From NCBI GenBank assembly GCA_028877275.1, contig JAPPFP010000009.1, positions 354,889 through 418,888 on the forward strand: a stretch of DNA of 64,000 nucleotides, read 5' to 3'. Shown in pieces: positions 6,766 through 56,015 of the stretch (position 1 is the first letter of the stretch; every line of letters begins with the position of its first letter). A program made the position numbers and the translations under genes. Below the pieces are notes generated by a model that worked only from the letters and a program-made list of their open reading frames with translations, was not told the DNA's origin and ran no database searches. Source of the DNA: Acidobacteriota bacterium (GTDB lineage Bacteria > Acidobacteriota > Thermoanaerobaculia > Multivoradales > Multivoraceae).

Positions 6766-8169
6766 ATGAGCCTACCCGCCGAAGCGACTTCGTTCGCCCC
6801 CTCCACGTCAGATCGCGACCATCTGTCCGTCCTGCATCCGACAACCGACCTGCCGGCGCTGCGGCGCGACGGTCCGCTGGTGATCGAACGGGGGCAGGGC
6901 ATCCGTGTCTGGGACGAGGACGGCAACGAGTACATCGAGGGGTTGGCGGGCCTCTGGTGCACCGCTCTGGGCTATGGCGTCGAGGAGCTCGCGGAAGCCG
7001 CCGCCGAGCAGATTCGGAAGCTCTCCTTCGCTCATCTCTTCGCGGGTCGCAGCCACGAACCGGCGGTCGCGCTGGCCGAGAAGCTGCGCGAGATCGCGCC
7101 GATTCCGAACGCGAAGGCGTTCTTCGGCACCTCCGGCTCCGACGCGAACGACACCCAGGTCAAGCTCGTCTGGTACTACAACAACGCGCTCGGCCGGCCG
7201 GAGAAGAAGAAGATCATCAGCCGCCGGCGGGGCTACCACGGGGTTTCCGTGGCCGCCGGCAGCATGACCGGGCTGCCGCCGTTCCACAAGAGTTTCGACC
7301 TGCCGCTGCCGCAGTTCCGCCATGTGACCTGCCCGCACTACTACCGCGAGGGTGAGCCGGGGGAGACGGAAGCGGAGTTCACGGCCCGGCTGGCGGCCGA
7401 ACTCGACGAGCTGATCCGCGCCGAGGGGCCCGAGACCGTCGCGGCCTTCATCGCCGAGCCGGTCCTGGGCGCCGGGGGCGTCGTCGTGCCGCCCGAGGGC
7501 TACTACCCGGCGATCCAGGCGGTCCTGGACGAGCACGATGTCCTGCTGATCGACGACGAGGTGATCTGCGGTTTCGGCCGGCTCGGCACGCCGTTCGGCG
7601 CCGAGGCGATGGAGATGAGGCCGGACACCGCCTCGGTCGCGAAAGCGCTGTCCTCCGCTTATCTGCCGATCAGCGCGGTGCTCGTGCCGGACGAGATGGT
7701 CGACGTCTTCGTCGAGGCCGGGGAGCGCTGGGGCGTGTTCGGTCACGGCTTCACCTACACCGGCCATCCCGTCTGTGCGGCCGTGGCGCTCAAGGCGCTC
7801 GAGCTGATGGAGGAGCGGAACCTCTTCGCTCACGCCGCCCGGGTCGGGCACTACTTTCAGGCCGGGCTGCGGCGCTTTGCTGATCATCCGCTGGTGGGGG
7901 AAACGCGGGGCAAGGGACTGCTCGGCGCCTGCGAGCTCGTGGCGGACAGGCAGAGCCGCGAGGCCTTTCCGATCCAGCGCGGAGTGGGGGCGTACTGCAT
8001 GCAACGCTGCCTGGACCACGGTCTGATCGTGCGGGCGCTGGGCGACACGGTGGCGTTCTGCCCGCCGTTGATCGTCACCGAGTCGGACGTCGACGAGATC
8101 CTGGAGCGCTTCGGTCGCGGCCTGAACGACACGCTTGCCTGGGTCGAGACCGGAGGCGCGGCGTCATGA
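6766..8169 (+). CDS. Class-III (omega) aminotransferase, PLP-dependent
   Basis: Family hallmarks: GLWCTALGYG, DEVICGFGRLG, TYTGHP. Confidence 0.85.
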   Translation: MSLPAEATSFAPSTSDRDHLSVLHPTTDLPALRRDGPLVIERGQGIRVWDEDGNEYIEGLAGLWCTALGYGVEELAEAAAEQIRKLSFAHLFAGRSHEPAVALAEKLREIAPIPNAKAFFGTSGSDANDTQVKLVWYYNNALGRPEKKKIISRRRGYHGVSVAAGSMTGLPPFHKSFDLPLPQFRHVTCPHYYREGEPGETEAEFTARLAAELDELIRAEGPETVAAFIAEPVLGAGGVVVPPEGYYPAIQAVLDEHDVLLIDDEVICGFGRLGTPFGAEAMEMRPDTASVAKALSSAYLPISAVLVPDEMVDVFVEAGERWGVFGHGFTYTGHPVCAAVALKALELMEERNLFAHAARVGHYFQAGLRRFADHPLVGETRGKGLLGACELVADRQSREAFPIQRGVGAYCMQRCLDHGLIVRALGDTVAFCPPLIVTESDVDEILERFGRGLNDTLAWVETGGAAS

Positions 8170-8945
8170 CGGAACTGAGCACGTTGAGCCGGTCGGTGGC
8201 GGGGAAGACGGCGCTGATCACGGGCTGCGCCTCGGGCATGGGCAGGGCGACCGCGATGCTGTTCGCGGCGGAGGGCGCCAACGTCGCCGCGACCGACATC
8301 AACGGCCCGGGCGTTGAAGCGGTGGTTGCCGGAATCCGCGAGGCTGGCCGGGAAGCCACCGCCTGGACCCTCGACGTGGGCGACGGCGATGCGATCGAAC
8401 GCGTCGTCGGCGAGGTGGCCGACCGTTACGGCTGCCTGGACATCCTGGTGAACAACGCCGGCATCTCGCGCGGCGGCCCGATCGACGCGGACGAGTACGA
8501 GGCGCGCTGGCAGGAGACGGTCAACGTGCTCCTGACCGCCCACCAGCGGACGATCCGGGCGGCGCTGCCCTATCTGCGCAAGTCGGACTCGCCGCGGATC
8601 GTCAACATCGCTTCGACCGAGGGGCTGGGAGCGACGGCCATGAACAGCGCCTACTCGGCCGCCAAGACGGGGGTGATCGGCTTGACCAGGGGGCTGGCGG
8701 TGGAGCTCGGCAAGGAGGGCATCACCGTGAACTGCATCTGCCCTGGCCCGATCCGCACCGCGATGACGGAGCGGATCCCCGAGGAGCACAAGCAGATCTA
8801 CGCCCGCCGCCGCACCGCGTTACGCCGCTACGGCGATCCCGAGGAGGTAGCCCACGGCACGCTGCACCTTTGCCTGCCGGCGTCGTCGTTCATCACCGGC
8901 GTGGCGCTGCCAGTCGACGGCGGATTGACCGTTCGCCGCGCCTGA
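8166..8945 (+). CDS. SDR family oxidoreductase
   Basis: TALITGCASGMGRA Rossmann motif, NNAG, YSAAK catalytic Tyr/Lys. Start overlaps the upstream stop (ATGA). Confidence 0.85.
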   Translation: MTELSTLSRSVAGKTALITGCASGMGRATAMLFAAEGANVAATDINGPGVEAVVAGIREAGREATAWTLDVGDGDAIERVVGEVADRYGCLDILVNNAGISRGGPIDADEYEARWQETVNVLLTAHQRTIRAALPYLRKSDSPRIVNIASTEGLGATAMNSAYSAAKTGVIGLTRGLAVELGKEGITVNCICPGPIRTAMTERIPEEHKQIYARRRTALRRYGDPEEVAHGTLHLCLPASSFITGVALPVDGGLTVRRA

Positions 8946-8951
8946 GTGTGA

Positions 8952-8973
8952 CCGTGGGTCTTCTGACCCACGG
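8952..8973. terminator. Candidate bidirectional terminator hairpin between convergent genes
   Basis: Perfect 9-bp inverted repeat CCGTGGGTC ttct GACCCACGG, 7 nt after the SDR stop and about 30 nt from the convergent sulfatase-like stop. No U-tract, which is common in high-GC taxa. Confidence 0.35.
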
Positions 8974-9002
8974 AAGACGACGCGCCGCGTAGCGGCGACG
9001 AT

Positions 9003-11273
9003 TCAGTCCAGGTAGCCGAGCGCCTCGAGCGCCCGGCGTTGCTCGGGCGGCATGTCCGGTTCCAGGCCGGGTTCGAGTTGCTGCCGCGAGCCGCGGCGCA
9101 TGAGTCTGCCGATCGCCCGGAGGTAACCGGCCCAATGCGGTTCCCTCGCGCCCAGGTTGCGCAGTTCGGCCGGGTCGTTGGTTGTGTCGAAGAGCTGGTG
9201 AGCCTCTCCGAACGAGGCGCTCCAGTAGTCGATCAGCTTGCGGCGGGGTTCGTCGTCCTGCTCGAGCAGTAGCGCGTCCACGGCCTCTCCGTCGTTGCGG
9301 AGGTCGGACATGGCGATCCGGACCTCCTCCCGGCTGCCTCGGGAGCGCATGAGAGGCAGAAGCGACCGGCCGTCGGTCTCGATCAGACCGGAGCGACCGA
9401 TCGCTTCAAGAATCGTCGGCGCGATATCGATCTGCTGCACCTGTTCTTCGACCACCGAGCGTTCGACCGCCGCGCGCAGCCGGGCGGGGAGCTGGACGAT
9501 CAGGGGTACGTGGATCTGTTCACGGTAGAGGTTCGAACCGTGGCCGTGGTTGCCGTGGTCCTGAAACTCCTCGCCGTGGTCGGAAACGAACACGACCAGG
9601 GTGTCGTCGAGGAAGCCTCGCCGGTCGAGTTCCTCGAGCAGGCGGCCGAAGTGCTCGTCCACCGCGGCGATTTCGGCGTCGTAGAGATCGCTCAGGTGAG
9701 GGATCTCGAAGGGTTGCAACTTGCCCATGTTCTTCCCCAGGGCGCCGGCGGGAGCGTCAGGCGCAAAGCGCGACCGGTGCGGCTCCGGGGGGTAGTAAGG
9801 CGCGTGCGGATCCATCGCGTGCATGTACACGAAGAAGGAATCTTCGGGGCCTATCCGCTCCAGCCACTCCAGCGTCTCGTTGACGACCCGCCACACCGGA
9901 ATGTGGATGCCAGGGCTCGAGAGGTTCTCCGGCAGTTGCTTGAAGTGGCTGAAGCCGCGGCGGAACCCGAAGGTCGGTCCGGCGATGCTGTTGCTGGACA
10001 CGCCGAGCGCCCGATAGCCGATGGAGCGGAGAACCTCGGGCAGGTAGGCCACGTCGCGGGCCAGAACGTGGTTTCGGCTGCGGGCGCCGTGGCTGTGCGG
10101 GTAGAGGCCGGTGAGGATGCTGGCCGTCGACGGCCGGGTCCACGAAGACTGGGCCACCGCGTGCTCGAACCGAACGGCTCCGGCGGCGAACCGGTCGATG
10201 TTCGGGGAGGTCGGACGGTCGTAGCCGTAGCAGCCGAGTCGATCGGCGCGGAGCGTATCGACGAGGAAGATGAGTACGTGGGGAGGCTTCGCCCCAGGGC
10301 TGTCGGCGTCGCCTTCCGGTGCGGACGTCGCGGTCGCCGGCGCCGCGGCGGCGGGTGAAGCCGCGTGCGGCCACGGGTTGGCCGCGCTGTGCAGTGCGCC
10401 GGAGAAGCGGAATCCGGCCTCGGCCTGGGGCAATCGCGCGCCGGCCACCGGCTCGATGCGGACCCTGATCGGGAGGTGGTGCGGTCGCAAGCGGACGCGC
10501 TTGCGCCCCTCCGTGATCGTCTCGCTCACCGCGGCCGGCGCCGCCGGGTAGCGATGGACGGAGACCAGAAGCGCGGGGGCGGGCTCGGTGTTTCGCCAGG
10601 CGCCCTGGGGACCGTAGAGCGCGATGTCGTCCAGCGCGAGAGAGCCGCCGTCGGGCAGCATGACGTAGAAGTCGACTGCCGTTCGGAACGGCAGATGCAG
10701 GCTCCCATCGGCGGTCGTCGTCGGCTTGGCGCCGACACCGGCGCCCTCGACCCGGATATGACTCCAGGCGACCTCCGGCGGTGTCGGCGAGGACGCGCCC
10801 CCGGTGGAGTAGTCGAGAAGAACCGTGTTGGCGCCGATCCGCTGCACCTCAACCGGCACTTCCAGCCGGTGGTCTTGCACCCCGGCGCCCGCGGTCAGGT
10901 GGAGGTCGCCGAGCAGTTCACCGTTCCAGGACACCGCCACCCTGGTCGGCGCGCCGTTCGCCGCCGTCAAGGAACGACCGCTGAGCACGAGCTCGAGCGG
11001 TCGGGTCCAGGCGAGGCGCCAGGCGATCTCCGACCGCGGTCCTTCGTTCGTGGCGAAGGCGCCCTCCGCGTCCTGGTTGGGCGGAGACCAGCCGGCCATC
11101 AGTTCCCGTCGCTGGTCGTAGTCGCCCGGAACGACCTCGCTCGACTCGGCCGTGAGGTCGGCAAGGTCCAGATGCGAGGCGAGATCGGTAGCGAGCGGCG
11201 GCGAGCCGCCTCCGCAGGCGAGAAACGCCAGGGCGACCGCGCCCAGGGCGCGGCGGGGCTCGGGCATCGCCAT
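9003..11273 (-). CDS. Sulfatase-family (alkaline-phosphatase superfamily) lipoprotein with a roughly 300-aa N-terminal extension
   Basis: Lipobox LAFLACGGGS. C-terminal half carries DTLRADRLGCYGYDRPTSPNIDRF and SDHGEE family motifs. The canonical C/S-x-P-x-R formylglycine signature seems replaced (TRPSTASILTG). Confidence 0.75.
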   Translation of the reverse strand: MAMPEPRRALGAVALAFLACGGGSPPLATDLASHLDLADLTAESSEVVPGDYDQRRELMAGWSPPNQDAEGAFATNEGPRSEIAWRLAWTRPLELVLSGRSLTAANGAPTRVAVSWNGELLGDLHLTAGAGVQDHRLEVPVEVQRIGANTVLLDYSTGGASSPTPPEVAWSHIRVEGAGVGAKPTTTADGSLHLPFRTAVDFYVMLPDGGSLALDDIALYGPQGAWRNTEPAPALLVSVHRYPAAPAAVSETITEGRKRVRLRPHHLPIRVRIEPVAGARLPQAEAGFRFSGALHSAANPWPHAASPAAAAPATATSAPEGDADSPGAKPPHVLIFLVDTLRADRLGCYGYDRPTSPNIDRFAAGAVRFEHAVAQSSWTRPSTASILTGLYPHSHGARSRNHVLARDVAYLPEVLRSIGYRALGVSSNSIAGPTFGFRRGFSHFKQLPENLSSPGIHIPVWRVVNETLEWLERIGPEDSFFVYMHAMDPHAPYYPPEPHRSRFAPDAPAGALGKNMGKLQPFEIPHLSDLYDAEIAAVDEHFGRLLEELDRRGFLDDTLVVFVSDHGEEFQDHGNHGHGSNLYREQIHVPLIVQLPARLRAAVERSVVEEQVQQIDIAPTILEAIGRSGLIETDGRSLLPLMRSRGSREEVRIAMSDLRNDGEAVDALLLEQDDEPRRKLIDYWSASFGEAHQLFDTTNDPAELRNLGAREPHWAGYLRAIGRLMRRGSRQQLEPGLEPDMPPEQRRALEALGYLD

Positions 11274-23353: not shown

Positions 23354-24574
23354 TCAACTTCTCTCCCGCCGCACGAGGACGTTCCCGGCCTCGATGACTC
23401 GGGCGGCCACTTGCCGCCAGTCGTAGCCGGCTGCCCGCTCGACGGCAGAGCTCGAAGCGGCGGCGAGTTCTCCGGGTTCGGCGAGCAACCGTTCCAGCAA
23501 CCCGGTCAGGTCGCCGGCGTGGGGGTCGACGGCCCAGCCTTCCCGGCCGTCGCGGACGAGTTCGGACACCGCGCTGTTCGGCGACCGGCAGTGGACCACC
23601 GGCACGCCGGCGGCCATCGCTTCCAGCGGGAAGAGTCCGAAGCCCTCGCGTGCGGAGGGTTGGACCGCGAGGCGGGCGCCGGCCACGGCGCGCCACACGT
23701 CCTCGTTCTCGGGCAGTCTGCCGGCGAAGTCGACGATCGCGTTGAGATTCTCCCGCTCGATGTGGGCGCGGAGATCGTCCTCCGCCGGGCCGCCGCCGAT
23801 GATCCGGAGCAGGGCCCCGCGTTCGGTGGCGAGCTTGCGGCCCGTCTCCGTGGCCGCCAGCCTGGCCGTGGCGTCGAGCAGCAGGTCGATCCGTTTCTCC
23901 GGGATCAGTCTGCCTGCGTAGACCAGGGGCGGCGCGGTCGCGTCCGCGTCGGCCGCGAGGGTGCGGATTCTCTCGAACGGAATGCCGTTCGGAATCACAT
24001 CGACCGTTTCGCCGCGGACCGTCGAGACACGGTCCGCGGTGAGCCGGCTGACCGCGGCCGCCTGGGTGCCGAAGCGCGCCGACCAGTGTTCGCAGAGGGC
24101 GTAGAGGCGCCACATGCCGGGGCTGAACGGCCCTGGAGGCCGGTGCTCCCGCCAATAGCGCCCCCAGTGCTCGTGCCAGGTGACGAGCAGCGGGATGCGC
24201 CGCCTGCGGCAGCGCCGGGCGAGCAGGGGCAGGTGGAGATAGGGGATGTTCGCGGTCTCGACGATGTCGACGCCGTCCAGCGGAATGCGGCGCACCTGGG
24301 AGGCAAGCGTCAGCGCTTCGATTCCCGATCTGCGGCCGCGCGCCACGTAGCGGCGGCTCGCCCTCGCCACCGGTTGAACGCGGACGTTCGGGTGGGGTTC
24401 GGCCGGAGACTCGGCCCAGCCCGACAGCAGGACCTCATGGCCGAGCCGGCCCAGCTCCCGCGCCAGCTCGTAGTTCCGGTGCTCGACGCCGCCGACCGAC
24501 TCCGGGTAGATGCAGTCGTAGAAGAACAGCCAGCGCAGGGGGCGTCCCGTCATCGCGGAAAGCGTACCCGCCAC
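23354..24574 (-). CDS. GT4 family glycosyltransferase
   Basis: GT-B fold with E-x7-E-like C-terminal motif region (EGFGLFPLEAMAAGVPVV). Confidence 0.8.
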   Translation of the reverse strand: MAGTLSAMTGRPLRWLFFYDCIYPESVGGVEHRNYELARELGRLGHEVLLSGWAESPAEPHPNVRVQPVARASRRYVARGRRSGIEALTLASQVRRIPLDGVDIVETANIPYLHLPLLARRCRRRRIPLLVTWHEHWGRYWREHRPPGPFSPGMWRLYALCEHWSARFGTQAAAVSRLTADRVSTVRGETVDVIPNGIPFERIRTLAADADATAPPLVYAGRLIPEKRIDLLLDATARLAATETGRKLATERGALLRIIGGGPAEDDLRAHIERENLNAIVDFAGRLPENEDVWRAVAGARLAVQPSAREGFGLFPLEAMAAGVPVVHCRSPNSAVSELVRDGREGWAVDPHAGDLTGLLERLLAEPGELAAASSSAVERAAGYDWRQVAARVIEAGNVLVRRERS

Positions 24575-27190: not shown

Positions 27191-27955
27191 ATGTGGTTGC
27201 GCTTGCGGCAGATCTGTCTGGTAGCCGAGAAACTCGCCCCGGTCGTCGACGACCTGGAGGCTGTCTTCGACATCGAGGTCTGCTTCAACGATCCCGGCAT
27301 CGTTCGGTTCGGGCTCGAGAACGCTCTGCTGCCGATCGGTAACCAGTTGCTCGAGGTCGTGGCCCCGATCGAGGAGAACACCGCCGGCGGGCGCTACCTG
27401 GAGAAGCGCGGCGGCGACGGCGGCTACATGTTCATCACCCAGTGCGACGACCATGCCCCGCGCCGGCGCCGGGTCGCCGAACTGGGGATTCGCCTGGTCA
27501 ACGAGTTCGAGCGCCACGGCTTCCAGAACATGCAGCTCCATCCCAAGGACACGGGCGGGACGTTCTTCGAGATCGACTGCCAGACGAACGGCCTGGAGCC
27601 GGGCGGGCCCTGGGAACCGGCGGGAGAGAACTGGCAGCGCTGCAGGCGGACTGACGTCGTCGACGCGATCGTGGCGGGGGAGATTCAGACCCCGGACCCG
27701 GACCGCCTTGCCGCCCGCTGGAGCGAGATCGCCGAGATTCCGCTGCACGATGTCGACGGCGTGCCGACGATCCCGTTCGAGAATGCTGACCTGCGGTTCG
27801 TTCTGCCGACCGACGGCCGGCCCGAAGGCCTGGGTGGCATCGATCTGCGCGCGGTCGACGCGGACCGCGCCCGTTCAGCCGCGGGCGAGCGGGGCTGCCT
27901 CGGCGCCGACGGCGTGATCCACATCTGCGGTACCCGCATCCGGCTCGTCGACTGA
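27191..27955 (+). CDS. VOC/glyoxalase-like domain protein
   Basis: Glyoxalase-like fold signals. The 3' end overlaps the convergent sqdB by about 80 nt. Confidence 0.6.
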   Translation: MWLRLRQICLVAEKLAPVVDDLEAVFDIEVCFNDPGIVRFGLENALLPIGNQLLEVVAPIEENTAGGRYLEKRGGDGGYMFITQCDDHAPRRRRVAELGIRLVNEFERHGFQNMQLHPKDTGGTFFEIDCQTNGLEPGGPWEPAGENWQRCRRTDVVDAIVAGEIQTPDPDRLAARWSEIAEIPLHDVDGVPTIPFENADLRFVLPTDGRPEGLGGIDLRAVDADRARSAAGERGCLGADGVIHICGTRIRLVD

Positions 27956-29215
27956 CGGCTTCGCGGCGGCGGGCTCGTCCGGTCCCGCACCGTTGCCGCC
28001 TTCCAGACGGGTCGTTCCATCCAGGAAACCGGACCTCCGCCGGCTGCCGTCCCAACGGATGTCGGGCAGCAGTACGTCCCGCTTCGACGCGATCCGGTCG
28101 TGGTGCGGCAGGAGGTCCTCGAGCATCGCCCGGAGCTCCGAGTCCATGTCGCGGGTCGGCTGGTAACCCAGGGCCAGCAGGTGGTCGTGGTCCGGGTTGT
28201 AGTGGTGCTCTTCCATTTCCTTGCGGGGATTCTCGATGCGCCGGATTCGCGGATCGAGGCCCATTTCGGAAGCGACGGCAGCGACCTTGGCGGCGAGCTC
28301 CGAGATGGTGTACGTCTCCTCGAACTGATTGAAGACGCGGTAGTCGCCTGCCTCGGGCGGGTTGTCGACCGCCAGAGTCAGGCACTGCATCGAGTCGCAG
28401 ATCGGCAGGAAGCCGCGGCGCTGGTTGCCGAGCCCGAAGAGGGTCAGCGGTTCCCCGATCACGGACTGGCAGCAGAAGCGGTTGAGGGCCGTGCCGAAAG
28501 CCTGGTCGAAGTCGAGCCGGGTGTGGAGCGCGGGATCGGCGGGGTGGTCGGCGGCGCTGCCGAAGAAGCGGGTGCCGTAGACGACGCCCTGCATCACGTC
28601 GGTGGCCCGCAGCCCGAAGATGCGGCACGCGAACATCACGTTGTTGCTGTCGTGGACCTTGCTCCAGTGGTACCAGGAGCCGGCTTGCCGCGGGAAGGGC
28701 AAGCGGTCGCGACGACCGCGGTACTCGACTTCGAAGAAGCCCTCGGGGATGTCGAGGTTCGGCGTGCCGTACTCGCCCATCGTGCCGAGCTTGACCAGGT
28801 GCGCCGCGGGGGCCAGATCGCGCATCGCGTAGAGCACGTTCATCGTGCCCTCGATGTTGTTGCGCTGCACCCAGATGGCGTGGTCCGCGTCCATCATGGA
28901 GTAGGGCGCCGAGGGGCATTCGCCCAGGTGGACAATCGCCTCCGGTCGGACGTCCTCGAACAGCCGGTACACCACGGCCTTGTCGGTCACGTCGCCCTGC
29001 ACCAGGTGCGGACGCCGGCCGTGGGCGGACTCGAAAGCGTCGAGGCGGGCCTCGACGGAGGCGACCGGCAAGGCGGAATGGCCGCCCATTTCGGCGACCC
29101 ACTCGCGGCGGAAGCCGGCATCGATGCCGGAAACCTCGTGGCCGCGGGCAGTCAGGTACTGCGCCAACGGCCAGCCGAGATAGCCGTCGATGCCTGCTAT
29201 GAGAACGCGCGTGAT
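27875..29215 (-). CDS. sqdB: UDP-sulfoquinovose synthase (SQD1/SqdB family). Proposed non-canonical ATC start at 29215; the ORF-track TTG start is 29167.
   Basis: Collinear similarity (recalled) to SQD1: GECPSAPYSM, QRNNIEGTMNVL, HLVKLGTMGEYGTPNLDIPEGFFEV, WYHWSKVHDSNN (catalytic Y-x-x-x-K), RLDFDQAFGTALNRFCCQ, YRVFNQF. The Rossmann loop IAGIDGYLGW is in frame upstream of TTG 29167, only 7 codons after a TGA. Confidence 0.8.
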   Translation of the reverse strand: MTRVLIAGIDGYLGWPLAQYLTARGHEVSGIDAGFRREWVAEMGGHSALPVASVEARLDAFESAHGRRPHLVQGDVTDKAVVYRLFEDVRPEAIVHLGECPSAPYSMMDADHAIWVQRNNIEGTMNVLYAMRDLAPAAHLVKLGTMGEYGTPNLDIPEGFFEVEYRGRRDRLPFPRQAGSWYHWSKVHDSNNVMFACRIFGLRATDVMQGVVYGTRFFGSAADHPADPALHTRLDFDQAFGTALNRFCCQSVIGEPLTLFGLGNQRRGFLPICDSMQCLTLAVDNPPEAGDYRVFNQFEETYTISELAAKVAAVASEMGLDPRIRRIENPRKEMEEHHYNPDHDHLLALGYQPTRDMDSELRAMLEDLLPHHDRIASKRDVLLPDIRWDGSRRRSGFLDGTTRLEGGNGAGPDEPAAAKPSVDEPDAGTADVDHAVGAEAAPLARG

Positions 29216-29340
29216 GTCACCCCCGAATCAAGCAAGTCGATTGTAGGGGCTTGCACGGCGGAACGCTACGGGTAAGGTCCCGTGGTGCTACCTTCCGCCC
29301 TCGTGCTCTGGTCGGGAACAAGACCGCCCCCCACCCCGTC

Positions 29341-30405
29341 ATGAGGATTCTCTACGGAGTGCAGGGCACGGGCCACGGTCACCTGGTGCGGTCGGCGGCG
29401 ATGGTGGCGGGCTTGCGAAGTCGGGGCCACGATGTGCACTGCCTGTTGACCGGCCGGTCTTCGGCGGCGTTCGCTGACCCTGAGATCCGGGCCAGCCACA
29501 CCCTGCTCGAGGGCTTCACCGGCCAGGCGGCCGGTGGGCGAGTGCGGTTGCTCCAGACCATTCGGCAGTTGCGGGTGGTTCGCTTTCTGCGCGACGTGCG
29601 CAGCTTCGACGCGTCCGGTTTCGACCTCGTGCTGACCGACTACGAACCGGTGTCCGCGTGGATCGCTCGTCGCTGCCGCCGGCGCAGCATCGGCGTCGGC
29701 CATCTGTACGCGTTCCACCGGCGGCTGAGACTGCCGGGCCGGACCGGGCCGGCCCGCTGGATGCTGCGCCTGTTCGCCCCGCTCTATACCCCTGTACGCA
29801 CCGCGGTCGGCCTTCACTGGCATCGATTCGGCGGCACGAATCTGCCACCGACGATCAGCCCCGACCTCGTCGCGGCGGCCGCCGGCGGTTCTGCCCGTAG
29901 CGATGGCCGGCGGTTCCTCGTCTACCTGCCCGCGGAGAGCGAACAGAGCATCGTGGAGCTTCTGGGGCGACTGCCGGGTCAGCGGTTTGTCGCCTACCGG
30001 CCGGTGCCCGAGCCGCTGGAGCGCGGCAACGTCTCGATTCGCCCCTACGATCGCGAGGCTTTCGTGGCCGATCTGGTCGACTGCGCGGGAGTCATCACGA
30101 ATGCGGGTTTCTCGCTCGTCAGTGAGGCGCTCCATCTGGGTCGCCGTCTCCTGGTGCAGCCCATTCGCCGCCATCCGGAGCAGTTCCTCAACGGCCGGGC
30201 TCTCACGGCCCTGGGTCTTGGCACCGTCGTCGAGCGGCTGACGGTGGAGGGGATCGAGTCCTGGATCGATACTCCGGAGCCGGCTCCCATGAACTATCCG
30301 GACGTAACGCGCCACCTGGTCGGCTGGATCGACGGTGGCGCCGAGCGTCCGCTCGGCGACCTGGCGTCCGATGCGTGGGACGAAGTGTCCTGGCGGCCGG
30401 CATGA
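29341..30405 (+). CDS. MurG/MGD-type (GT28-like) glycosyltransferase
   Basis: N-terminus MRILYGVQGTGHGHLVRS (G-rich GT-B N-domain like MurG/MGD). C-domain GVITNAGFSLVSEALHLGRRLLVQP. Divergent from sqdB with a 125-bp gap. Confidence 0.7.
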   Translation: MRILYGVQGTGHGHLVRSAAMVAGLRSRGHDVHCLLTGRSSAAFADPEIRASHTLLEGFTGQAAGGRVRLLQTIRQLRVVRFLRDVRSFDASGFDLVLTDYEPVSAWIARRCRRRSIGVGHLYAFHRRLRLPGRTGPARWMLRLFAPLYTPVRTAVGLHWHRFGGTNLPPTISPDLVAAAAGGSARSDGRRFLVYLPAESEQSIVELLGRLPGQRFVAYRPVPEPLERGNVSIRPYDREAFVADLVDCAGVITNAGFSLVSEALHLGRRLLVQPIRRHPEQFLNGRALTALGLGTVVERLTVEGIESWIDTPEPAPMNYPDVTRHLVGWIDGGAERPLGDLASDAWDEVSWRPA

Positions 30406-31208
30406 ACAGACCGCGAGCGGAACGTCCGGCCGATCCCGACCTCGACTTCACACTGGATCACTACCGGGAGATCCTGGCCCGGATTACCTCGACGCACCGC
30501 ACCCTCTCGTTCGGCGAGGCGGCTCCGCTGGATGAGGCGTTGCTCGAGGTGGAGCGCTTCGTCCTGATGCGGCACGACGTCGAGTTCAGTCTCGACGCCG
30601 CCCTGACCATGGCGCGAGCCGACCACGACGCCGGCGTCCGCTCGACCTTCTTCGTCCAGATCGGTTCCGACTACAACCTGTTCGAGGCCGACGGTGCGGA
30701 GGCTGTCGAGCAGATCCTCGATCTGGGGCACGACCTGGGATTCCACTACGATCTCGGACTGCTGGAGCGTTCCGGCGGCGACCCGGTGGCGCTGGCCGGC
30801 CGGGCGATCGACCTGATCGAGGGCTTCTTCGACACGCGCATCCGGGCCGCCAGCCCCCACATGCCGATGCGGTCGGGCCGGACGCTGCCGATTCCCGGCG
30901 TCGTCGACGCCTACGACCCGCTCTACTTCGAGCGGATCAAGTACCTCTCCGACAGCACCCAGGTCTGGCGCGAGGGCGTGGTGACGTCGCTGCTCGACCG
31001 CTACGACCAGATCCAGCTCCTCACCCACGAGTACCACTGGACGGAGGAGGGCCTGGGTTGGGACAAGTTGCTGTTGCTCGAGGCCGAGTTCAAGTACCGG
31101 CGGCTCAGGCGCCGCGCCGAGGCCAACATCGAGCGCTTTCGGGAGGGGCTGCGCCTGCGGGCCGAGCGCGACGCCGCGTTTCGCGCAGGGCGCGGCGGGT
31201 CGAAGTAG
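30402..31208 (+). CDS. Polysaccharide-deacetylase-like protein / hypothetical
   Basis: ATGA-coupled to the GT. Conserved acidic/His blocks (LMRHDVEFSLD, HDAGVRSTFF, HDLGFHYD) reminiscent of NodB-type deacetylases. Assignment is weak. Confidence 0.45.
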   Translation: MNRPRAERPADPDLDFTLDHYREILARITSTHRTLSFGEAAPLDEALLEVERFVLMRHDVEFSLDAALTMARADHDAGVRSTFFVQIGSDYNLFEADGAEAVEQILDLGHDLGFHYDLGLLERSGGDPVALAGRAIDLIEGFFDTRIRAASPHMPMRSGRTLPIPGVVDAYDPLYFERIKYLSDSTQVWREGVVTSLLDRYDQIQLLTHEYHWTEEGLGWDKLLLLEAEFKYRRLRRRAEANIERFREGLRLRAERDAAFRAGRGGSK

Positions 31209-31219
31209 CCTTCGGGTCG

Positions 31220-32152
31220 ATGGATCGGGTGCGCACGGTTCGGGACGTCCTGCTGCGCCCGACGGCCGAGAACGAACTCCCGCGTCTCTCCGAACTGACG
31301 GAGGTCGTCTACGGCGTCCGGCGCGAGCCGGAGGTGCTGCGCTGGCTTCTCTTCCATTCCGGTCCGGGGCCGGAGGTCGAGTCTTCCGTCGCCGAACGGC
31401 ATGGCCGAATCGTCGGCCACGTGGCTTCGTTGCACTGCCGCTACCGGATCCATGGCGGAACGGTGACGGGTGCTCACCGGATGCTGTGGATGGTTGAACA
31501 CGCCGCGAGGGGCAGGGCCGGCGTCCCCCTTGCCGGTCGCACCCCCGACACGGACTTCGAGGTCGTGCTCGGCGGCACCGCCGCCACCAAGGCGATGCTG
31601 GTCATGCGCGGATTCCGCGAGGCCGGCGAAGCGCTCGAAGTACGTCTGAGCACCGCGGCGCCGGGCCCCGCCACGACCAGGCCGACCGGCCTGGAGCTGG
31701 TCAACTTCGATCCTGCCGCGGTCGGCCCGGTCGCTCCTCCGGACACGCTGGTCAATCTCGCCGAGCCCGACCACCTGACGTGGCTGGCGGCCTGTCCGGA
31801 GCACGACGGACTACTGTTCACCCTGGAACGCTCGGGCGAGCCGCTGGGTCCGGTCCTGCTCTACGTCAACCGGGCGAACGATCCGCCCACCGGCCGGATC
31901 GTCCACATGCCGTGGCTTGAAGACGATGCGGATCTGGCGCTGCTTGCCCTCCTCGACCGATTGGGCCGGGAAGGCTGCGCCGAGGCGACCATCCTGACCA
32001 CGGAAGAGGGCCTGTTGCGGGCCACGGAGTCGCTAGGGGGCGAGGTCTTCTACAGGCGTCCGCTCTGGTTCCGCAACCCGAACGGCGCGGTCGAGCCTGC
32101 CCGCTTCTTTCTCACCTACATGGAGGGGGACCTCGCCTACCGGCGGGTATAG
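31220..32152 (+). CDS. GNAT-fold acyltransferase (FemAB/BioF2-like), hypothetical
   Basis: ATG at 31220, 12 nt after the upstream stop. Coding bias. Weak family resemblance only. Confidence 0.45.
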   Translation: MDRVRTVRDVLLRPTAENELPRLSELTEVVYGVRREPEVLRWLLFHSGPGPEVESSVAERHGRIVGHVASLHCRYRIHGGTVTGAHRMLWMVEHAARGRAGVPLAGRTPDTDFEVVLGGTAATKAMLVMRGFREAGEALEVRLSTAAPGPATTRPTGLELVNFDPAAVGPVAPPDTLVNLAEPDHLTWLAACPEHDGLLFTLERSGEPLGPVLLYVNRANDPPTGRIVHMPWLEDDADLALLALLDRLGREGCAEATILTTEEGLLRATESLGGEVFYRRPLWFRNPNGAVEPARFFLTYMEGDLAYRRV

Positions 32153-32158
32153 AGGTGG

Positions 32159-33307
32159 CTACCCGTGCGGCGTCACGAGGTACTTCTCGCCGGTCGCCTG
32201 CTTCGCGTAGACCGCGATGGACGCCGGGTCGAGAGCCTGCCGCAGGGTGATCGTCTTCGCGTAGCTCGACGCGAACGTCGTCGTGATCTCGGCGGCGACC
32301 CGCTTGCGGAGGCGTTCCGAGGCCTCGTAGCCGATGCGGCGCAGGAAGTGGGGCAGCAGCCAGCCGCCCAGGCCCCAGGCCATGCCGAAGTTGCGGGTCA
32401 GGACGGTCTGTCTGCGGTCGAGTCCGCCGTAGATGTAGACCTGCTTGAGTGTCGCCGAGCCGTAGCGGCTGTACTCGGGAGCGTTGGCGGAGAGCGCCGC
32501 CTCCATCGCGGTCAGGATCTGGCCGGCCAGCACACCGCCGCCGGTGGCGTCGAAGCCGAGCGTGGCAGAGGTCGCCGCGAGGGCGGCAATCAGGTCGGCC
32601 ATGAAGGTCTCGGAACTCGAGTTCACGACGTGGGTGGCGCCGATGCCGCGCAGGAGTTCCTCGTGTTCCTGCCGGCGGACGACGTTGACCAGCGGCACGC
32701 CGTCCGCGGTGCAGATCTTCTGGAGCATCTGGCCGAGGTTGGAGGCGGCGGCGGTGTGGACCAGGGCGGTGTGGCCCTCGAGGCGCATCGTTTCGACCAT
32801 GCCCAGGGCGGTCAGCGGGTTGACGAAGCAGGAGGCTCCTTCCGCGGGTGTCGTGCCCTCGGGCAGCGACAGGCACTGCCGGGCCTCGGCCAGCCGGTAC
32901 TCCGCGTACATCGAGCCGCCGAGGACGGCAACCGTGCGGCCGATCAGGGCCTGGGCGGCCGGCGACGAGCCGGCGGCGACGACGACGCCGGCGCCCTCGT
33001 TGCCGGTCGGTATTGCCTGGTCGAGACGACCGGCCACCAGCCGCGCCAGTCCCTTGGGGAGGTCGGCGACTACGACCGGGCCGTGCTCGCCGTTCGAGGC
33101 GCGGACCGTGGAGACGTCGGCCGGACCGAACAGCACGCCCAGGTCGGACGGGTTGATCGGCGACGCCTCGACGCGGATCACGACCTGGTCCGGTCCGGGT
33201 TCGGGTACCGGGACCCTGATCAGCGCCAGTTCGACGGTGCCGCCGCCGCTATCGTCGGCGCGGATCGTGGAGTGGAGTGTCAGGCCATCGGCGGGAAGTT
33301 CGGTCAT
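32159..33307 (-). CDS. MDR-superfamily oxidoreductase (quinone-oxidoreductase/alcohol-dehydrogenase-like)
   Basis: GroES-like N-domain plus Rossmann domain pattern. Confidence 0.75.
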   Translation of the reverse strand: MTELPADGLTLHSTIRADDSGGGTVELALIRVPVPEPGPDQVVIRVEASPINPSDLGVLFGPADVSTVRASNGEHGPVVVADLPKGLARLVAGRLDQAIPTGNEGAGVVVAAGSSPAAQALIGRTVAVLGGSMYAEYRLAEARQCLSLPEGTTPAEGASCFVNPLTALGMVETMRLEGHTALVHTAAASNLGQMLQKICTADGVPLVNVVRRQEHEELLRGIGATHVVNSSSETFMADLIAALAATSATLGFDATGGGVLAGQILTAMEAALSANAPEYSRYGSATLKQVYIYGGLDRRQTVLTRNFGMAWGLGGWLLPHFLRRIGYEASERLRKRVAAEITTTFASSYAKTITLRQALDPASIAVYAKQATGEKYLVTPHG

Positions 33308-48949: not shown

Positions 48950-49770
48950 GTGGCCGTCTCCGCGGTGAGCGCGGGACTCGGGTGGCGCTTCAGGAACCGT
49001 GCGAGATGCCAGTACGCGAGGGCGTTGGCGGCCAGGCCGGAATGGGTGCCGAGGACCTCCCGATTCAGCGACGGGTCGTGTAGCCGCGTGTAGCGCCAGG
49101 CGACGACGCCGTCCCGCCGGGTGAAGATGGCGAGCTGCGGCACCTCTTCCGGAAACGGGCTCTGCACCGAGCGGACCAGGTCGCAGCGGCAGTCACCCGA
49201 GAAGCAGGCGGGTTCCCGGGCGCCGTCCCGTTCGACGACGCGGCGGCGTACCGCCTCCGCCAGCCGCATCACCATGGGATGGGAGCGGACGCCCCGGATC
49301 GGTGAGCCCATCGTGGTGACGGACGCGACCAGATCGGGACGCAGGCTCGTTACACCGCGCGAGAGCATGCCGCCCAGGCTGTGGCCGACCAGGTGCGCGC
49401 GCCGGCCGGTCTCGTCCGCGGCCTTCTGGAGCGTTCCGATCAGCCGGTTGCCCAGCCGGTCGAGACAGTCGGCGTTCTGCCCGATGGCCGAACGGTAGGG
49501 GCGGTAGCCGATGCGGCCAAGCCAGCGGCGCATCGGCGCCAGGTAGCCGTCGGTTCCGGTGAAGCCGGGAACGACGATCACCGCGGCGCCGTCGCCGCGC
49601 GGCACGCCCATGCCGTGGTAGATGGGCGTGAACGGCAGGAAGGCAAACTCGGCGGCCGCGAACGGCTCGCGCCAAAGCGGCAGCGCCGCCGGCACCGAAT
49701 CCCGCAGGAGACGCGGGTTCGCGCTCCAGATCGGGCTGGCCTGACGCCCCCGCCGGGCCGACGCCGTCAC
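48946..49770 (-). CDS. Alpha/beta-hydrolase lipase/esterase (GHSLGG)
   Basis: VIVVPGFTG..., nucleophile elbow GHSLGG. GTG start overlaps the WS/DGAT stop (TAGTG). The ORF-track 5' extension is rejected. Confidence 0.7.
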   Translation of the reverse strand: MTASARRGRQASPIWSANPRLLRDSVPAALPLWREPFAAAEFAFLPFTPIYHGMGVPRGDGAAVIVVPGFTGTDGYLAPMRRWLGRIGYRPYRSAIGQNADCLDRLGNRLIGTLQKAADETGRRAHLVGHSLGGMLSRGVTSLRPDLVASVTTMGSPIRGVRSHPMVMRLAEAVRRRVVERDGAREPACFSGDCRCDLVRSVQSPFPEEVPQLAIFTRRDGVVAWRYTRLHDPSLNREVLGTHSGLAANALAYWHLARFLKRHPSPALTAETAT

Positions 49771-51284
49771 TAGGCGACTCCTCGCAGGGACGCGTCGGAA
49801 TGGGAGTCGGTCGCGGCGGCCTCTTCGGCCTGCGGCAGATCGACCTGGGGTGACGCTGCCGCGAAGCAGCGCGCGCCGCTCGGCTCCTCGCTCTCCACCC
49901 CGGCCGCCTCCCGGAGTTCGGCGTACGACTCCTCCAGGCACTGGGCGAGGAACCACGCGTCGGGGATGAGCTTGGCGTCCACCGTCACTCCCAGGGTGAT
50001 GCGCTGGTTGTAGCTCAGGATGGCGACGAACAGGCCGATGTTGTTCGAAACGATGCCGAGTGGTAGCCAGTCGACCAGCTTGTGGGGTCCGAAGTACAGC
50101 GGAATCATCGGCCCGGGCACGTTGGTCGAGACGGTGTTGAACAGGGTCTGGGAGAAGGGCATCGTCGCGGCGACGGCAGCCATGAGCGGCGGGACCCGGT
50201 CGCTGAACTGGGTCATCTGGTAAAAGGCCTTCGCCTGCCCGGCCTCCTTCAGCTTGTTCATCGCGTCCCGTTCCCTGCCGAGGCGTTCGACCGGGTCGTC
50301 GACCCCGACGAAGAGCGGAGCGATCATGTTCGAGACGAGATTCCCGAGCTGACCCCGTTCGTCCTGCTGGCGCATGCTGACCGGGCACATGGCGCGCAGC
50401 TCGAGTCCCTTCGGGTCCTGGCCGCGCTCACGCAGGTAGCGACCGATGCCGCCGGCGAGCACGGTGAGCACGACGTCGTTGACGGTGCCGCTCAGGGCGG
50501 ACTTGACGGCGCGCAGTTCGGGGAAGGAGAACTGGGCCCATGCGAACCCCCGCTCCTTGCTGACCGGTCGATTGAAGACGGTGCGCGGCGCAGGAGCGGC
50601 GGAGACCGGCAGGGTCGCGGCGCTGGCCGCCACCATCTCGCGTACGCGGTCCGCCATCTGGCGAGGGCGCGCGGCGTCGAAGGCGGCGTTCGTCCAGGAC
50701 TCGTTCAGTTGTCCGAGGCGATGCTGCATCGCTTCCTGGAGGAGGCTCAGAGAGTCCGGCAGCGGCTTCGGCGCCCAGGGCTCGGCGGGTGCGTCCGGCA
50801 GTTCCTCGGTGGGTGAGAAGTCGCTCAGCACCATCGACAGGTCGACGCCGGAGACGCCGTCGACCATCGCGTGGTGGATCTTCCAGACGACCGCCGTGTG
50901 TCCCGGGATGCCGCGGAGCAGAATCCCCTTCCAGAGCGGCCGGTTGCGGTCGAGCATGCCGCCGTAGGCCTCGGCGGCGGCGCGGGCCAGTACCTGGTGG
51001 TCGCTGTCCTCAGGGATCCAGACCTCCTCGACGTGGTTCTCCAGGTTGAAGGACGGGTCATCGACCCACACCGGGTGGGAGACGAGGAAGGGCGGGAACA
51101 GCACGCGCTGGCGGTAGCGGGGCAGCAGGTGCATGCGGGCGGCAAGCTGTTCGACCATGTACTCGCGCGAGAACTCGCCTTCGTAGACCATGCAGCCGCC
51201 GATGTGCATCGTCTCGTGGGGGCGTTCGACATAGAGGAAGGCGGCGTCGAGCGGGGTCAGGAATCGGTTCAGTTCCGTGGCCAT
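49770..51284 (-). CDS. Wax ester synthase/diacylglycerol acyltransferase (WS/DGAT)
   Basis: Canonical HHAMVDGVSG active-site motif and WS/DGAT N-terminal block LTPLDAAFLYVE. Confidence 0.85.
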   Translation of the reverse strand: MATELNRFLTPLDAAFLYVERPHETMHIGGCMVYEGEFSREYMVEQLAARMHLLPRYRQRVLFPPFLVSHPVWVDDPSFNLENHVEEVWIPEDSDHQVLARAAAEAYGGMLDRNRPLWKGILLRGIPGHTAVVWKIHHAMVDGVSGVDLSMVLSDFSPTEELPDAPAEPWAPKPLPDSLSLLQEAMQHRLGQLNESWTNAAFDAARPRQMADRVREMVAASAATLPVSAAPAPRTVFNRPVSKERGFAWAQFSFPELRAVKSALSGTVNDVVLTVLAGGIGRYLRERGQDPKGLELRAMCPVSMRQQDERGQLGNLVSNMIAPLFVGVDDPVERLGRERDAMNKLKEAGQAKAFYQMTQFSDRVPPLMAAVAATMPFSQTLFNTVSTNVPGPMIPLYFGPHKLVDWLPLGIVSNNIGLFVAILSYNQRITLGVTVDAKLIPDAWFLAQCLEESYAELREAAGVESEEPSGARCFAAASPQVDLPQAEEAAATDSHSDASLRGVA

Positions 51285-51397
51285 TTTGGGGTCTCCAGAA
51301 CGGGCGGATCGCGTATGGGTAGGGGTTTATGCTGCGCTGCTTGCTGCAACGCAGCAGAAGCCTCGCACAGAAACGGGCGATTGGCAAGGGTTGGCCC

Positions 51398-53404: not shown

Positions 53405-53414
53405 CCCTAAGCCC

Positions 53415-54314
53415 TCAGCTCAGGATGGGATAGCCGCTGACGGCGGTCAGCTTGCGGAACAGGCCCTGCAGCCGCTCGAGCACGGGCCGGTCGGTGCCGC
53501 CGATCGGACGGCCGTCCACCTCCGCGACGGCCACCAGTTCGCCCATCGTGCCGGTACAGAAGGCCTCGTCGGCACGGTAGAGCTCGGCCTGCGTGAAGTC
53601 GGCGACTTCATGAGGGATGCCGTGGTTTCGGCAGAGTTCGAGCACGGTCGAGCGGGTGACGCCCTCGGGACAGGCGTGGCAATGGCTGGTCACCACGACT
53701 CCGTCGCGCACCAGGAAGACGTGGGTCGCGTTCGTTTCCGCCACGAAGCCCTGGCGGTCGAGCATCAGGGCGTCGTCGGCGCCGGCGGCGTTCGCCTCGA
53801 TCTTGGCCAGGATCGACTGGATCAGGTTGTTGTGGTGGATCTTCGGATCCATGCAGTCGGGCGGAAAGCGGCGGATCGAGGAGGTCATCAGCCGGATGGG
53901 TTGTGAGCCGTAGACCGGCGCCTTGTGCTCGGCGAGGACGATCAGGGTGGGTCCGGCGGTGTTGAGGCGGGGGTCCATGCCGGACGTGATCTTGACGCCC
54001 CGGGTCAGGGTCAGGCGGATGTGGACATCGTCCCGCATCCCGTTCGCCTCCAGGGTGCGGCGGATCTCGTCGATGATCTCCTCGTGCTGCGGGATCTCCG
54101 CGAAGGCCAGAGCCAGCGCCGAGTGGCGGAGGCGGTCCAGGTGCTGCTCGAGCCTGAAGATGCGGCCGTCGTACAGGCGCAGCCCCTCCCAGACGGCGTC
54201 GCCGCCCTGGACGGCCGAATCGAAGGGGCTGATGCCCGCCTGGTCGCGGTGGATCAGGTCGCCGTTGATGTTGATCAGCAGGTCGCGGTTTCTGGGGTTG
54301 GCCTTCTGCAGCAT
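53415..54314 (-). CDS. Class IV (branched-chain / D-amino-acid) aminotransferase
   Basis: Start at MLQKANPRNRDLLININGDL. Fold-type-IV blocks HVFLVRDGVVVT, EAFCTGTMGELV. The ORF-track 5' extension is rejected. Confidence 0.8.
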   Translation of the reverse strand: MLQKANPRNRDLLININGDLIHRDQAGISPFDSAVQGGDAVWEGLRLYDGRIFRLEQHLDRLRHSALALAFAEIPQHEEIIDEIRRTLEANGMRDDVHIRLTLTRGVKITSGMDPRLNTAGPTLIVLAEHKAPVYGSQPIRLMTSSIRRFPPDCMDPKIHHNNLIQSILAKIEANAAGADDALMLDRQGFVAETNATHVFLVRDGVVVTSHCHACPEGVTRSTVLELCRNHGIPHEVADFTQAELYRADEAFCTGTMGELVAVAEVDGRPIGGTDRPVLERLQGLFRKLTAVSGYPILS

Positions 54315-54367
54315 GACGGGTTCGCTGGCGGCTGGGGCGGGCGGTCTCTCGGTTCGGAAGACGAGGC

Positions 54368-55111: not shown

Positions 55112-55118
55112 TTCGTTG

Positions 55119-55964: not shown

Positions 55965-56015
55965 TGCGTCCCTCGGGACAAGCATACGGCGTTCACCCGG
56001 TGATAGCTTGCGCCG

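Follow-up and report, generated by a model that had tools for sequence, protein, structure and literature searches.

Conserved linkage of a UDP-sulfoquinovose synthase gene with a candidate sulfoquinovosyltransferase gene and putative N-acyl exchange genes in an acidobacterium

Introduction

Known transferases that use uridine diphosphate (UDP)-sulfoquinovose are the GT4-family enzymes SqdX and SQD2 and the GT8-family enzyme SqdD. Many non-phototrophic bacteria and archaea carry sqdB, the gene for UDP-sulfoquinovose synthase, without a recognized partner. Here, we describe sqdB and three genes beside it in a 64,000-nucleotide stretch of an Acidobacteriota genome (contig JAPPFP010000009.1, positions 354,889 to 418,888 of the forward strand), which we refer to as the window. 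The three genes encode a glycosyltransferase (GT) of the TIGR00661/PF13528 family, a protein with the CE4 deacetylase fold (gene 3, or g3), and a predicted tandem-GNAT acyltransferase (gene 4, or g4).

The best-described relatives of this locus are the cyanobacterial SqdB/SqdX and plant SQD1/SQD2 systems, which make sulfoquinovosyl diacylglycerol (SQDG). Like them, the locus combines a UDP-sulfoquinovose synthase that has the SQD1 catalytic set with an adjacent, single soluble or peripheral GT-B enzyme. However, SqdX and SQD2 belong to GT4 rather than to TIGR00661/PF13528, the CE4-fold and tandem-GNAT proteins have no counterpart there, and the host here is a non-phototrophic, sponge-type acidobacterium. 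The sqdBDC and sqdA genes of Sinorhizobium and Rhodobacter are similar in that a non-GT4 transferase follows sqdB and a separate acyltransferase goes on to acylate the first conjugate. In that system, SqdD is a GT8 enzyme of the GT-A fold and SqdA is a PlsC-type O-acyltransferase that uses acyl-acyl carrier protein, whereas the locus here encodes a GT-B enzyme, a predicted CE4-fold hydrolase, and a predicted tandem GNAT. The Sinorhizobium meliloti sqdB operon gives rise to both sulfoquinovosyl glycerol and SQDG, with SqdA acylating sulfoquinovosyl glycerol (bioRxiv 10.1101/2022.08.18.504050).

Amino-glycolipids are made by a GT and a polysaccharide-deacetylase-type enzyme in the HexSDF system of C. 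difficile (PMC10128005) and the GpgSDF system of P. aeruginosa (PMC11483062). The likeness to the present locus lies in a single operon that encodes a GT and a deacetylase-type enzyme, which in those systems act in turn on a membrane lipid. HexSDF and GpgSDF attach N-acetylglucosamine (GlcNAc), leave the amine free in the final product, and include an MprF-like flippase, whereas the cluster here has sqdB, a putatively re-acylating tandem GNAT, and no flippase. Agl3 and Agl1 of Sulfolobus acidocaldarius place sulfoquinovose on an N-glycan; Agl1, described as a membrane-bound GT that acts on a dolichol-linked glycan, is only a predicted sulfoquinovose transferase (PMC4388408). There, too, a UDP-sulfoquinovose synthase is clustered with a predicted sulfoquinovose transferase in a non-phototroph, and homologs of our GT also lie beside archaeal (Nanobdellota) sqdB. 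Unlike Agl1, our GT lacks a transmembrane segment, and no N-glycosylation genes are linked to it. The lipid A aminoarabinose pathway pairs the formyltransferase domain of ArnA with the deformylase ArnD (ArnD structure, 8t0j). In contrast to that pathway, the cluster here is not linked to any gene in the window for a formyltransferase, an aminotransferase, or an ArnT-type protein.

Gene layout of the sqdB locus

The cluster and its boundaries comprise the following features.

27191-27955: VOC/glyoxalase-like gene, convergent with sqdB; cluster boundary
27875-29215, minus strand: sqdB, UDP-sulfoquinovose synthase homolog, 446 codons as read (NF041015 match and SQD1 alignment)
29216-29340: divergent intergenic region of 125 bp between sqdB and the GT gene
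29341-30405, plus strand: GT-B glycosyltransferase, MJ1255/VC2487 family, 354 amino acids (PF13528, TIGR00661)
30402-31208, plus strand: g3, CE4/NodB-fold deacetylase-like protein, 268 amino acids (by fold; no Pfam or NCBIfam model)
31220-32152, plus strand: g4, predicted tandem-GNAT acyltransferase, 310 amino acids (borderline PF13527 match, and fold)
32159-33307: zinc-type dehydrogenase gene, convergent; other cluster boundary

As a first-pass annotation of the window had described, 125 bp separate sqdB from the divergent GT gene, and the GT stop codon overlaps the g3 start codon as ATGA (30402-30405), an arrangement of translational coupling. Gene 4 starts 11 nucleotides after the g3 stop codon. 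The window has a G+C content of ~69%, and the G+C fraction at third codon positions is of the coding type in all four open reading frames (ORFs) (0.82-0.91). The closest relatives, with GT protein identity of up to 96%, are metagenome-assembled genomes labeled Thermoanaerobaculia, Holophagales, or "Candidatus Multivorans"; several originate from sponge metagenomes.

Linkage of the GT gene to sqdB is conserved across phyla

We consider synteny to be the decisive evidence for a link among the four genes. The window proteins were compared by tblastn with 80 genome loci that hold GT relatives. All ~41 acidobacterial genome loci with enough flanking sequence have sqdB, GT, g3, and g4 together, including those of Holophagae relatives with 60-62% GT identity, and the same four genes occur together in metagenome loci L088, L091, L093, L094, and L095. 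Overall, the four genes keep together in ~45 acidobacterial loci. The flanking genes (GT4, MltA, MetX, VOC, ADH) are common only to the closest clade. On a distant metagenomic contig (L085), genes for the GT (53% identity), g3 (62%), g4 (46%), and SqdB (44%) are contiguous on one strand (6970-10988), in that order, with unrelated genes on either side.

Linkage between sqdB and the GT gene extends outside the phylum, where sqdB lies ≤2.3 kb from the GT homolog in 14 of 39 distant loci. In 11 of these 14, from gammaproteobacteria (Rariloculaceae and others), Thermodesulfobacteriota, and Nanobdellota (DPANN) archaea, sqdB is immediately upstream of the GT gene on the same strand, with a one-base ORF overlap in some (L045, L053). 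The remaining three, from Desulfofustis and Desulfohalobiaceae, have sqdB downstream on the opposite strand. Since the gene that follows sqdB in S. meliloti is the GT8 gene sqdD, the TIGR00661 GT takes the position of SqdD in the distant loci; this placement immediately after sqdB occurs in at least five lineages besides the acidobacteria. Other direct neighbors of GT homologs encode a PAP2 phosphatase, a GtrA-like transmembrane protein, a UbiA prenyltransferase, an MMPL transporter, and large GT4 fusion proteins; judged by gene content, the PAP2, GtrA-like, UbiA, and MMPL neighbors amount to a lipid context.

The first-pass annotation had proposed one pathway running from sqdB through a transferase, a deacylase, and a re-acylating enzyme. 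The sqdB-GT linkage on which it rested proved to be conserved in relatives far beyond the clade, whereas its details of a GT28 transferase, a FemAB-type enzyme, the lack of a GT4 gene, and a wider sulfur theme found no support. From gene order, we conclude that sqdB, GT, g3, and g4 probably form a functional unit that involves the SqdB product.

The window SqdB retains the SQD1 catalytic set

Family matches to Pfam and NCBIfam are reported throughout at E ≤ 0.01. The assignment of the minus-strand gene to sqdB, also made in the first-pass annotation, was borne out. Its product scored 523.5 bits against NCBIfam NF041015 (UDP-sulfoquinovose synthase), compared with ~35 bits for the next-best sugar-nucleotide short-chain dehydrogenase/reductase family. 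Residues 2-389 align with residues 2-383 of Arabidopsis SQD1 (PDB 1qrr; E = 6e-114), and the SWYHWSK motif is present. Comparison with SQD1 showed that the protein has the GxxGxxG nicotinamide adenine dinucleotide (NAD) motif, the T145/Y182/K186 triad, the SQD1-specific residues M146, E148, Y149, and H183, and also Q209. The window SqdB shares 44% of its residues with SQD1 and 37% with the genetically validated S. meliloti SqdB; because these two validated enzymes are 43% identical to each other, it lies within the span of proven enzymes. We conclude, from sequence comparison, that 27875-29215 encodes a UDP-sulfoquinovose synthase homolog with a complete catalytic set.

The SqdBs encoded beside distant GT homologs score ~330 bits against NF041015 and keep the SQD1 signature. 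Doubt over whether these low-scoring proteins are genuine was dismissed by their 56-62% identity to the validated S. meliloti SqdB. Since such Sinorhizobium-like SqdBs score ~330 bits, the NF041015 cutoff leaves out at least one genuine subfamily. A Rosetta-stone search among 150 SqdB family representatives found no SqdB-GT fusions.

Several other features of SqdB proteins and their contexts were observed. The window SqdB ends in a low-complexity tail of ~57 amino acids that is not in SQD1 and differs in length among relatives; the convergent overlap of sqdB with the VOC/glyoxalase-like gene (81 bp, 27875-27955) falls in this tail. Many of the family representatives (P0306-P0451) are 680-1160 amino acids long, with insertions of 300-400 amino acids at differing points of the fold (e.g., near residues 100, 145-190, and 240-290). 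Hint/intein domains were detected in one representative (P0312), and in four (P0416, P0422, P0436, and P0451) SqdB is fused to a class V aminotransferase (Aminotran_5)/cysteine-desulfurase-like domain, a possible built-in supply of the sulfur donor. A further sqdB context without SqdX or SqdD was found on a plasmid of Pseudonocardia autotrophica (L169; NZ_AP018921.1, 275948-289075). The SqdB homolog there is 56% identical to SQD1, and its gene has a divergent GT2 gene, a GNAT gene upstream, and genes for a pyridoxal phosphate-dependent protein of the cysteine synthase family and an MFS transporter downstream.

The GT is a candidate sulfoquinovosyltransferase

The GT matched Pfam PF13528 (Glyco_trans_1_3) with 115.8 bits (E = 2.9e-33; cutoff, 25) over positions 1-317 of 322. 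It matched TIGR00661 (MJ1255/VC2487 family) over positions 1-319 of 321 with 163.9 bits (E = 5e-48), below the cutoff of 195.9, and gave a weak match to PF13439. The first-pass annotation had placed it in the GT28/MurG/MGD type. We found no match to the GT28/MurG families (PF03033, PF04101) or to the MurG NCBIfam model, and a profile search of PDB with the GT family gave weak GT1 matches only (e.g., OleD; E = 3e-4) and no MurG. The absence of GT28 matches, with weak GT1 structures as the nearest, rules out MurG/GT28 identity. The genomic surroundings likewise lack a peptidoglycan (mur/fts) or galactolipid context, the neighbors being sqdB, g3, and g4 here and sqdB, PAP2, GtrA, UbiA, and MMPL elsewhere. 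The relatives of the GT are thus not MurG enzymes in a peptidoglycan setting, and the pathway idea of the first-pass annotation passes this check.

The GT has no transmembrane segment and carries a net basic charge; peripheral lipid glycosyltransferases are often net basic. Searches of a full-text literature library found no functional study of TIGR00661, MJ1255, or PF13528 and no paper on sqdB adjoining a TIGR00661-type GT. We propose, on the basis of the linkage, that the GT is a candidate sulfoquinovosyltransferase from the uncharacterized TIGR00661/PF13528 family.

Gene 3 adjoins N-acyl transferases, and gene 4 is a predicted tandem GNAT

Gene 3 matched no Pfam or NCBIfam model, PF01522 (Polysacc_deac_1) included, and no PDB sequence, and the best hit of its profile against PDB sequences, a chitin deacetylase, reached only E ~0.1. 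At the level of fold, however, the NodB-like character given to it in the first-pass annotation was upheld: the protein has the distorted (beta/alpha) barrel of the CE4/NodB fold. Its invariant residues are R57-H58-D59, H110, H115, H153, S183-D184-S185, and H209. The motifs RHD(V/I)(E/D), GH-x4-H, and (L)TH, also invariant, lie at plausible places and, as we read them, resemble the metal-binding and catalytic motifs of CE4. Other members of the family are "hypothetical proteins" of 50-57% identity from Acidobacteriota, Rhodospirillales, Planctomycetes, Acidimicrobiia, and Nanoarchaeota.

We counted g3 orthologs at ≥50% identity and set aside three loci without adjoining sequence (L105, L109, and L111). 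In every locus with adjoining sequence present, g3 adjoins an N-acyl transferase gene, in one of two architectures. Type A is GT-g3-tandem GNAT, as in the window. In type B, a Formyl_trans_N/C gene is translationally coupled upstream of g3 (L081-L084, L087, L096-L104, L107, L108, and L110; a 4-nucleotide overlap in L081-L084 and L087), and in one protein (P0215) formyltransferase and g3 are fused. Five type B loci have sqdB close by (L082, L083, L087, L096, and L111), among them a contiguous formyltransferase-g3-SqdB run in L096 and g3-SqdB in L111. Other type B loci belong to ordinary surface-glycan clusters, which include Wzy, GT2, NeuB, and PseB-like genes, and one has an MprF-like flippase domain. 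Because a de-N-acylase-like enzyme constantly adjoins an N-acyl transferase, the pairing suggests N-acyl exchange on an amino sugar. The formyltransferase-g3 module is widespread, being present in surface-glycan clusters from several phyla, and appears to be either an undescribed system that exchanges N-acetyl for N-formyl or one of the ArnA/ArnD kind.

Gene 4 scored 24.8 bits against PF13527, for which the cutoff is 25. Its family appears to be restricted to this cluster type: all 63 homologs found are in such clusters, and most were already annotated as PF13527. The AlphaFold2 model of gene 4 has a pLDDT of 85.5. Searches with this model in Foldseek gave matches spanning ~300 columns to the Eis-like structure 2ozg (E = 1e-12; TM score, 0.64), the tandem GNAT 7q3a, N-myristoyltransferases, and 2wpw; the tandem GNAT MAB_4324 was matched as well. 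We conclude that gene 4, as modeled, is two GNAT folds in one chain, resembling Eis and N-myristoyltransferase. The first-pass annotation had called it a FemAB/BioF2-like GNAT; the GNAT part holds, as a tandem fold, but FemAB-type aminoacyl transfer has no support, as gene 4 matched no FemAB family model and no Fem structure was among its top 50 fold matches. One distant homolog (P0301) carries PF13480.

A proposed pathway and its alternatives

We give roughly an even chance to a reading in which the four genes, as one unit, make a sulfoquinovose glycoconjugate, most likely a membrane glycolipid, with the GT transferring the sugar and g3 and g4 carrying out N-acyl exchange. The soluble, basic GT-B enzyme of the TIGR00661 family would transfer the sulfonated sugar to a membrane-associated acceptor, as the conserved gene linkage suggests, and would fill the role that GT4 SqdX/SQD2 or GT8 SqdD has in known pathways. 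Fold and conserved partnership suggest the other two steps: an amino sugar, carried either by the same molecule or by its precursor, would lose an N-acyl group (probably acetyl) to the CE4-fold enzyme, and the tandem GNAT would re-acylate the freed amine from acyl-coenzyme A. The logic would be that of HexS/HexD, GpgS/GpgD, NodC/NodB/NodA, and MshA/MshB/MshD.

Several observations weigh against this proposal. Sulfoquinovose carries no N-acetyl group; therefore, the g3 step needs a second amino sugar or another SqdB substrate, which leaves three options: the acceptor contains an N-acetylhexosamine, the GT adds an N-acetylhexosamine and sulfoquinovose is added elsewhere, or SqdB sulfonates UDP-GlcNAc. 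The NF041015 score of the window SqdB is below the curated equivalog cutoff of 575, and its residue at SQD1 position 101 is Pro (ECP-SAPYSM, where SQD1 has EQR-SAPYSM), compared with Arg in SQD1 and S. meliloti SqdB and also in the Pseudonocardia SqdB. Some formyltransferase-g3 pairs lie in ordinary surface-polysaccharide clusters that lack sqdB. No sqdB lies within 8 kb of 25 of the 39 distant GT homologs, and in L086, and possibly also in L038, GT-g3-g4 has no sqdB beside it; in L086, an MMPL transporter gene follows and sqdB is not within reach. Hence, with 25 of 39 loci and L086 lacking a nearby sqdB, the GT family may use several donors. Finally, sqdB in this clade has a GT4-family gene (Glycos_transf_1 and Glyco_transf_4; 23354-24574, minus strand), the only one in the window, at a distance of 3.3 kb from its 3' end. 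The GT4 gene could encode an SqdX-type transferase; its best NCBIfam matches are weak and generic. The first-pass annotation had reported the usual sqdB partners to be absent from the window. This stands for SqdD (tblastn with S. meliloti SqdD; best E in the window, 0.017) but is wrong as written for GT4, because of the gene at 23354-24574.

The sequence GT, deacetylase, N-acyltransferase logically requires an N-acetyl sugar, which sulfoquinovose is not. One alternative, which we consider unlikely, is that GT-g3-g4 makes a glucosamine-type glycolipid or small conjugate by itself: the GT would use UDP-GlcNAc as the donor of GlcNAc, from which g3 would remove the acetyl group before g4 acylates the amine. 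SqdB would then feed another transferase, e.g., the GT4 enzyme or one whose gene lies in another part of the genome, and that transferase would either decorate the same molecule or make ordinary SQDG. Known pairs of a GT and a CE4 enzyme do make glucosamine lipids (PMC10128005, PMC11483062), the GT-g3-g4-MMPL run of L086 is out of range of any sqdB, and a GT4 gene is near sqdB in this clade. However, the TIGR00661 homolog is the only glycosyltransferase beside a bona fide sqdB in 11 distant loci, often with start/stop overlap; the co-directional four-gene run of L085 has no GT4 gene nearby; and the GT4 gene is conserved only in the closest clade. The third way around the missing N-acetyl group is that this clade of SqdB sulfonates UDP-GlcNAc to UDP-6-sulfo-6-deoxy-GlcNAc, which g3 deacetylates, g4 re-acylates (a formyltransferase elsewhere formylates it), and the GT transfers. 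A single scheme would then explain a de-N-acetylase and an N-acyltransferase beside sqdB in two architectures, L096 (formyltransferase-g3-SqdB) and L111 (g3-SqdB) included, and g3, g4, and the formyltransferase-type enzymes are soluble, as work on a nucleotide sugar would need. The g3-associated SqdBs of the EYG type all carry Pro at position 101, in contrast to the Arg of those validated enzymes that were examined. We therefore considered Pro101 as a marker of an altered substrate and rejected it: although it tracks g3 association, it is not diagnostic or g3-specific, because it is the majority state among the nearest SqdB family representatives (80/96). All catalytic and most sugar-site residues are as in SQD1, formyltransferase-g3 pairs occur without sqdB too, and we know of no natural sulfonate of the 6-sulfo-GlcNAc kind. 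We find this scheme improbable. The same low standing applies to its product, a conjugate of an N-acylated 6-sulfo amino sugar ("sulfoquinovosamine"), possibly with a fatty acyl group from the GNAT and placed by the GT on a membrane lipid; in other phyla, the deacetylase and formyltransferase would give an N-formyl version.

There is also a slim chance that the GT works on an oligosaccharide linked to polyprenyl, so that sulfoquinovose would end up on a surface glycan or a protein glycan and not on a lipid. In its favor, g3 and formyltransferase genes occur in O-antigen/capsule-type clusters with Wzy, Wzx, a Bac_transf sugar-phosphate transferase, and NeuB, of which L082 also has sqdB; GtrA-like and UbiA neighbors fit polyprenyl carriers; and the Sulfolobus N-glycan carries sulfoquinovose (PMC4388408). 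However, in none of the type A loci is the unit linked to a gene for a flippase, a polymerase, an initiating transferase, or an oligosaccharyltransferase, and L086 couples GT-g3-g4 to an MMPL lipid exporter. We strongly disfavor, as highly improbable, the view that the adjacency is meaningless, with sqdB and an SqdX-type GT4 making plain SQDG and GT-g3-g4 forming an unrelated operon. In its favor, sqdB and the GT gene are divergent, not co-transcribed, in the window, and a GT4 gene is nearby. However, the linkage recurs in divergent, co-directional downstream, and directly upstream arrangements in unrelated phyla and in archaea, whereas chance alone, by our estimate, would make a single-copy gene of a 4- to 5-Mb genome a neighbor in ~0.1-0.2% of loci.

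The linkage names a concrete candidate for a sulfoquinovose transferase, the uncharacterized TIGR00661/PF13528 family, which is spread over Acidobacteriota, Gammaproteobacteria, Desulfobacterota, and DPANN archaea. Two orphan families are defined as well, a CE4-fold enzyme that pairs with N-acyl transferases and a cluster-specific tandem GNAT; taken together, they suggest that abundant sponge symbionts have a modified sulfoquinovose conjugate. If the proposal is true, the use of sqdB as a marker of SQDG in metagenomes would change; if the sulfoquinovosamine reading were true, both the sulfonated sugar and the class of sulfonolipid would be new.

The sqdB start region and the divergent intergenic region

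The first-pass annotation had started sqdB at 29215. The codon there (29215-29213, minus strand) is ATC, and no canonical in-frame start was found upstream of the Rossmann motif in the window sqdB. An in-frame TGA (29230-29228) is followed, on the minus strand, by TTC GGG GGT GAC ATC ACG CGC GTT. The first ATG, GTG, or TTG is a TTG at 29167, and a start there would remove the GxxGxxG NAD motif. A comparison of the corresponding position across L001-L040 and L074 showed that sqdB likewise lacks a canonical start in at least 28 related loci. The start region, AGGGGGTGAC-ATC-ACG, is conserved: four loci have ACC instead of ATC, and ACG does not vary apart from the Holophagae outgroup (L037), where TTG takes its place. 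The conservation of a start region without a canonical codon therefore points to conserved non-canonical initiation, and translation of sqdB probably begins at ATC 29215 or ACG 29212.

In an alignment of 11 loci, the block at 29283-29313 (TGGTGCTACCTTCCGCC CTCGTGCTCTGGTC) is almost invariant among relatives, and we take it as the probable promoter or leader of the GT operon. The intergenic region has no match to the sigma-70 consensus, and a terminator scan found nothing. The intergenic region is ~185-210 bp in relatives, compared with 125 bp in the window, where ~55-80 nucleotides of the sqdB leader are deleted. In relatives (L001, L008, and others), this leader contains GCGCGGTCTGATCCCC ~60-80 nucleotides upstream of sqdB. 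GCGCGGTCTGATCCCC is complementary to the Shine-Dalgarno-like GGGGG and the ATCACGCGC start region, with which it would form a predicted sequestering hairpin. Every pair of this hairpin is invariant, so covariation gives no support. An Rfam search of the sqdB leader of one relative returned no credible match.

Other genes in the window

The first-pass annotation had seen a sulfur-glycoconjugate theme in a sulfotransferase gene and a sulfatase-like gene elsewhere in the window. Both genes exist, the sulfotransferase gene 22 kb and the sulfatase-domain gene 17 kb from the cluster, but nothing ties them to it; we rejected a link, as there is neither shared synteny nor proximity. The sulfotransferase gene is part of a minus-strand run (49770-56060) that may be a separate cluster for a sulfated lipid or envelope modification.

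49770-51284, minus strand: WS/DGAT acyltransferase
51398-53404, minus strand: PMT_2 (ArnT-like GT-C) protein
53415-54677, minus strand: class IV aminotransferase
54368-55111, minus strand: Sulfotransfer_5 protein
55119-56060, minus strand: PhyH-type dioxygenase
9003-11273, minus strand (outside this run): "sulfatase," 756 amino acids, with the Sulfatase domain at residues 331-626 only, after a 330-amino-acid N-terminal region

The ORF calls of the class IV aminotransferase and Sulfotransfer_5 genes overlap, and a second WS/DGAT gene is present elsewhere in the window. The layout of the sulfatase-domain protein would fit a transferase of the LtaS/EptA type better than it would a true sulfatase.

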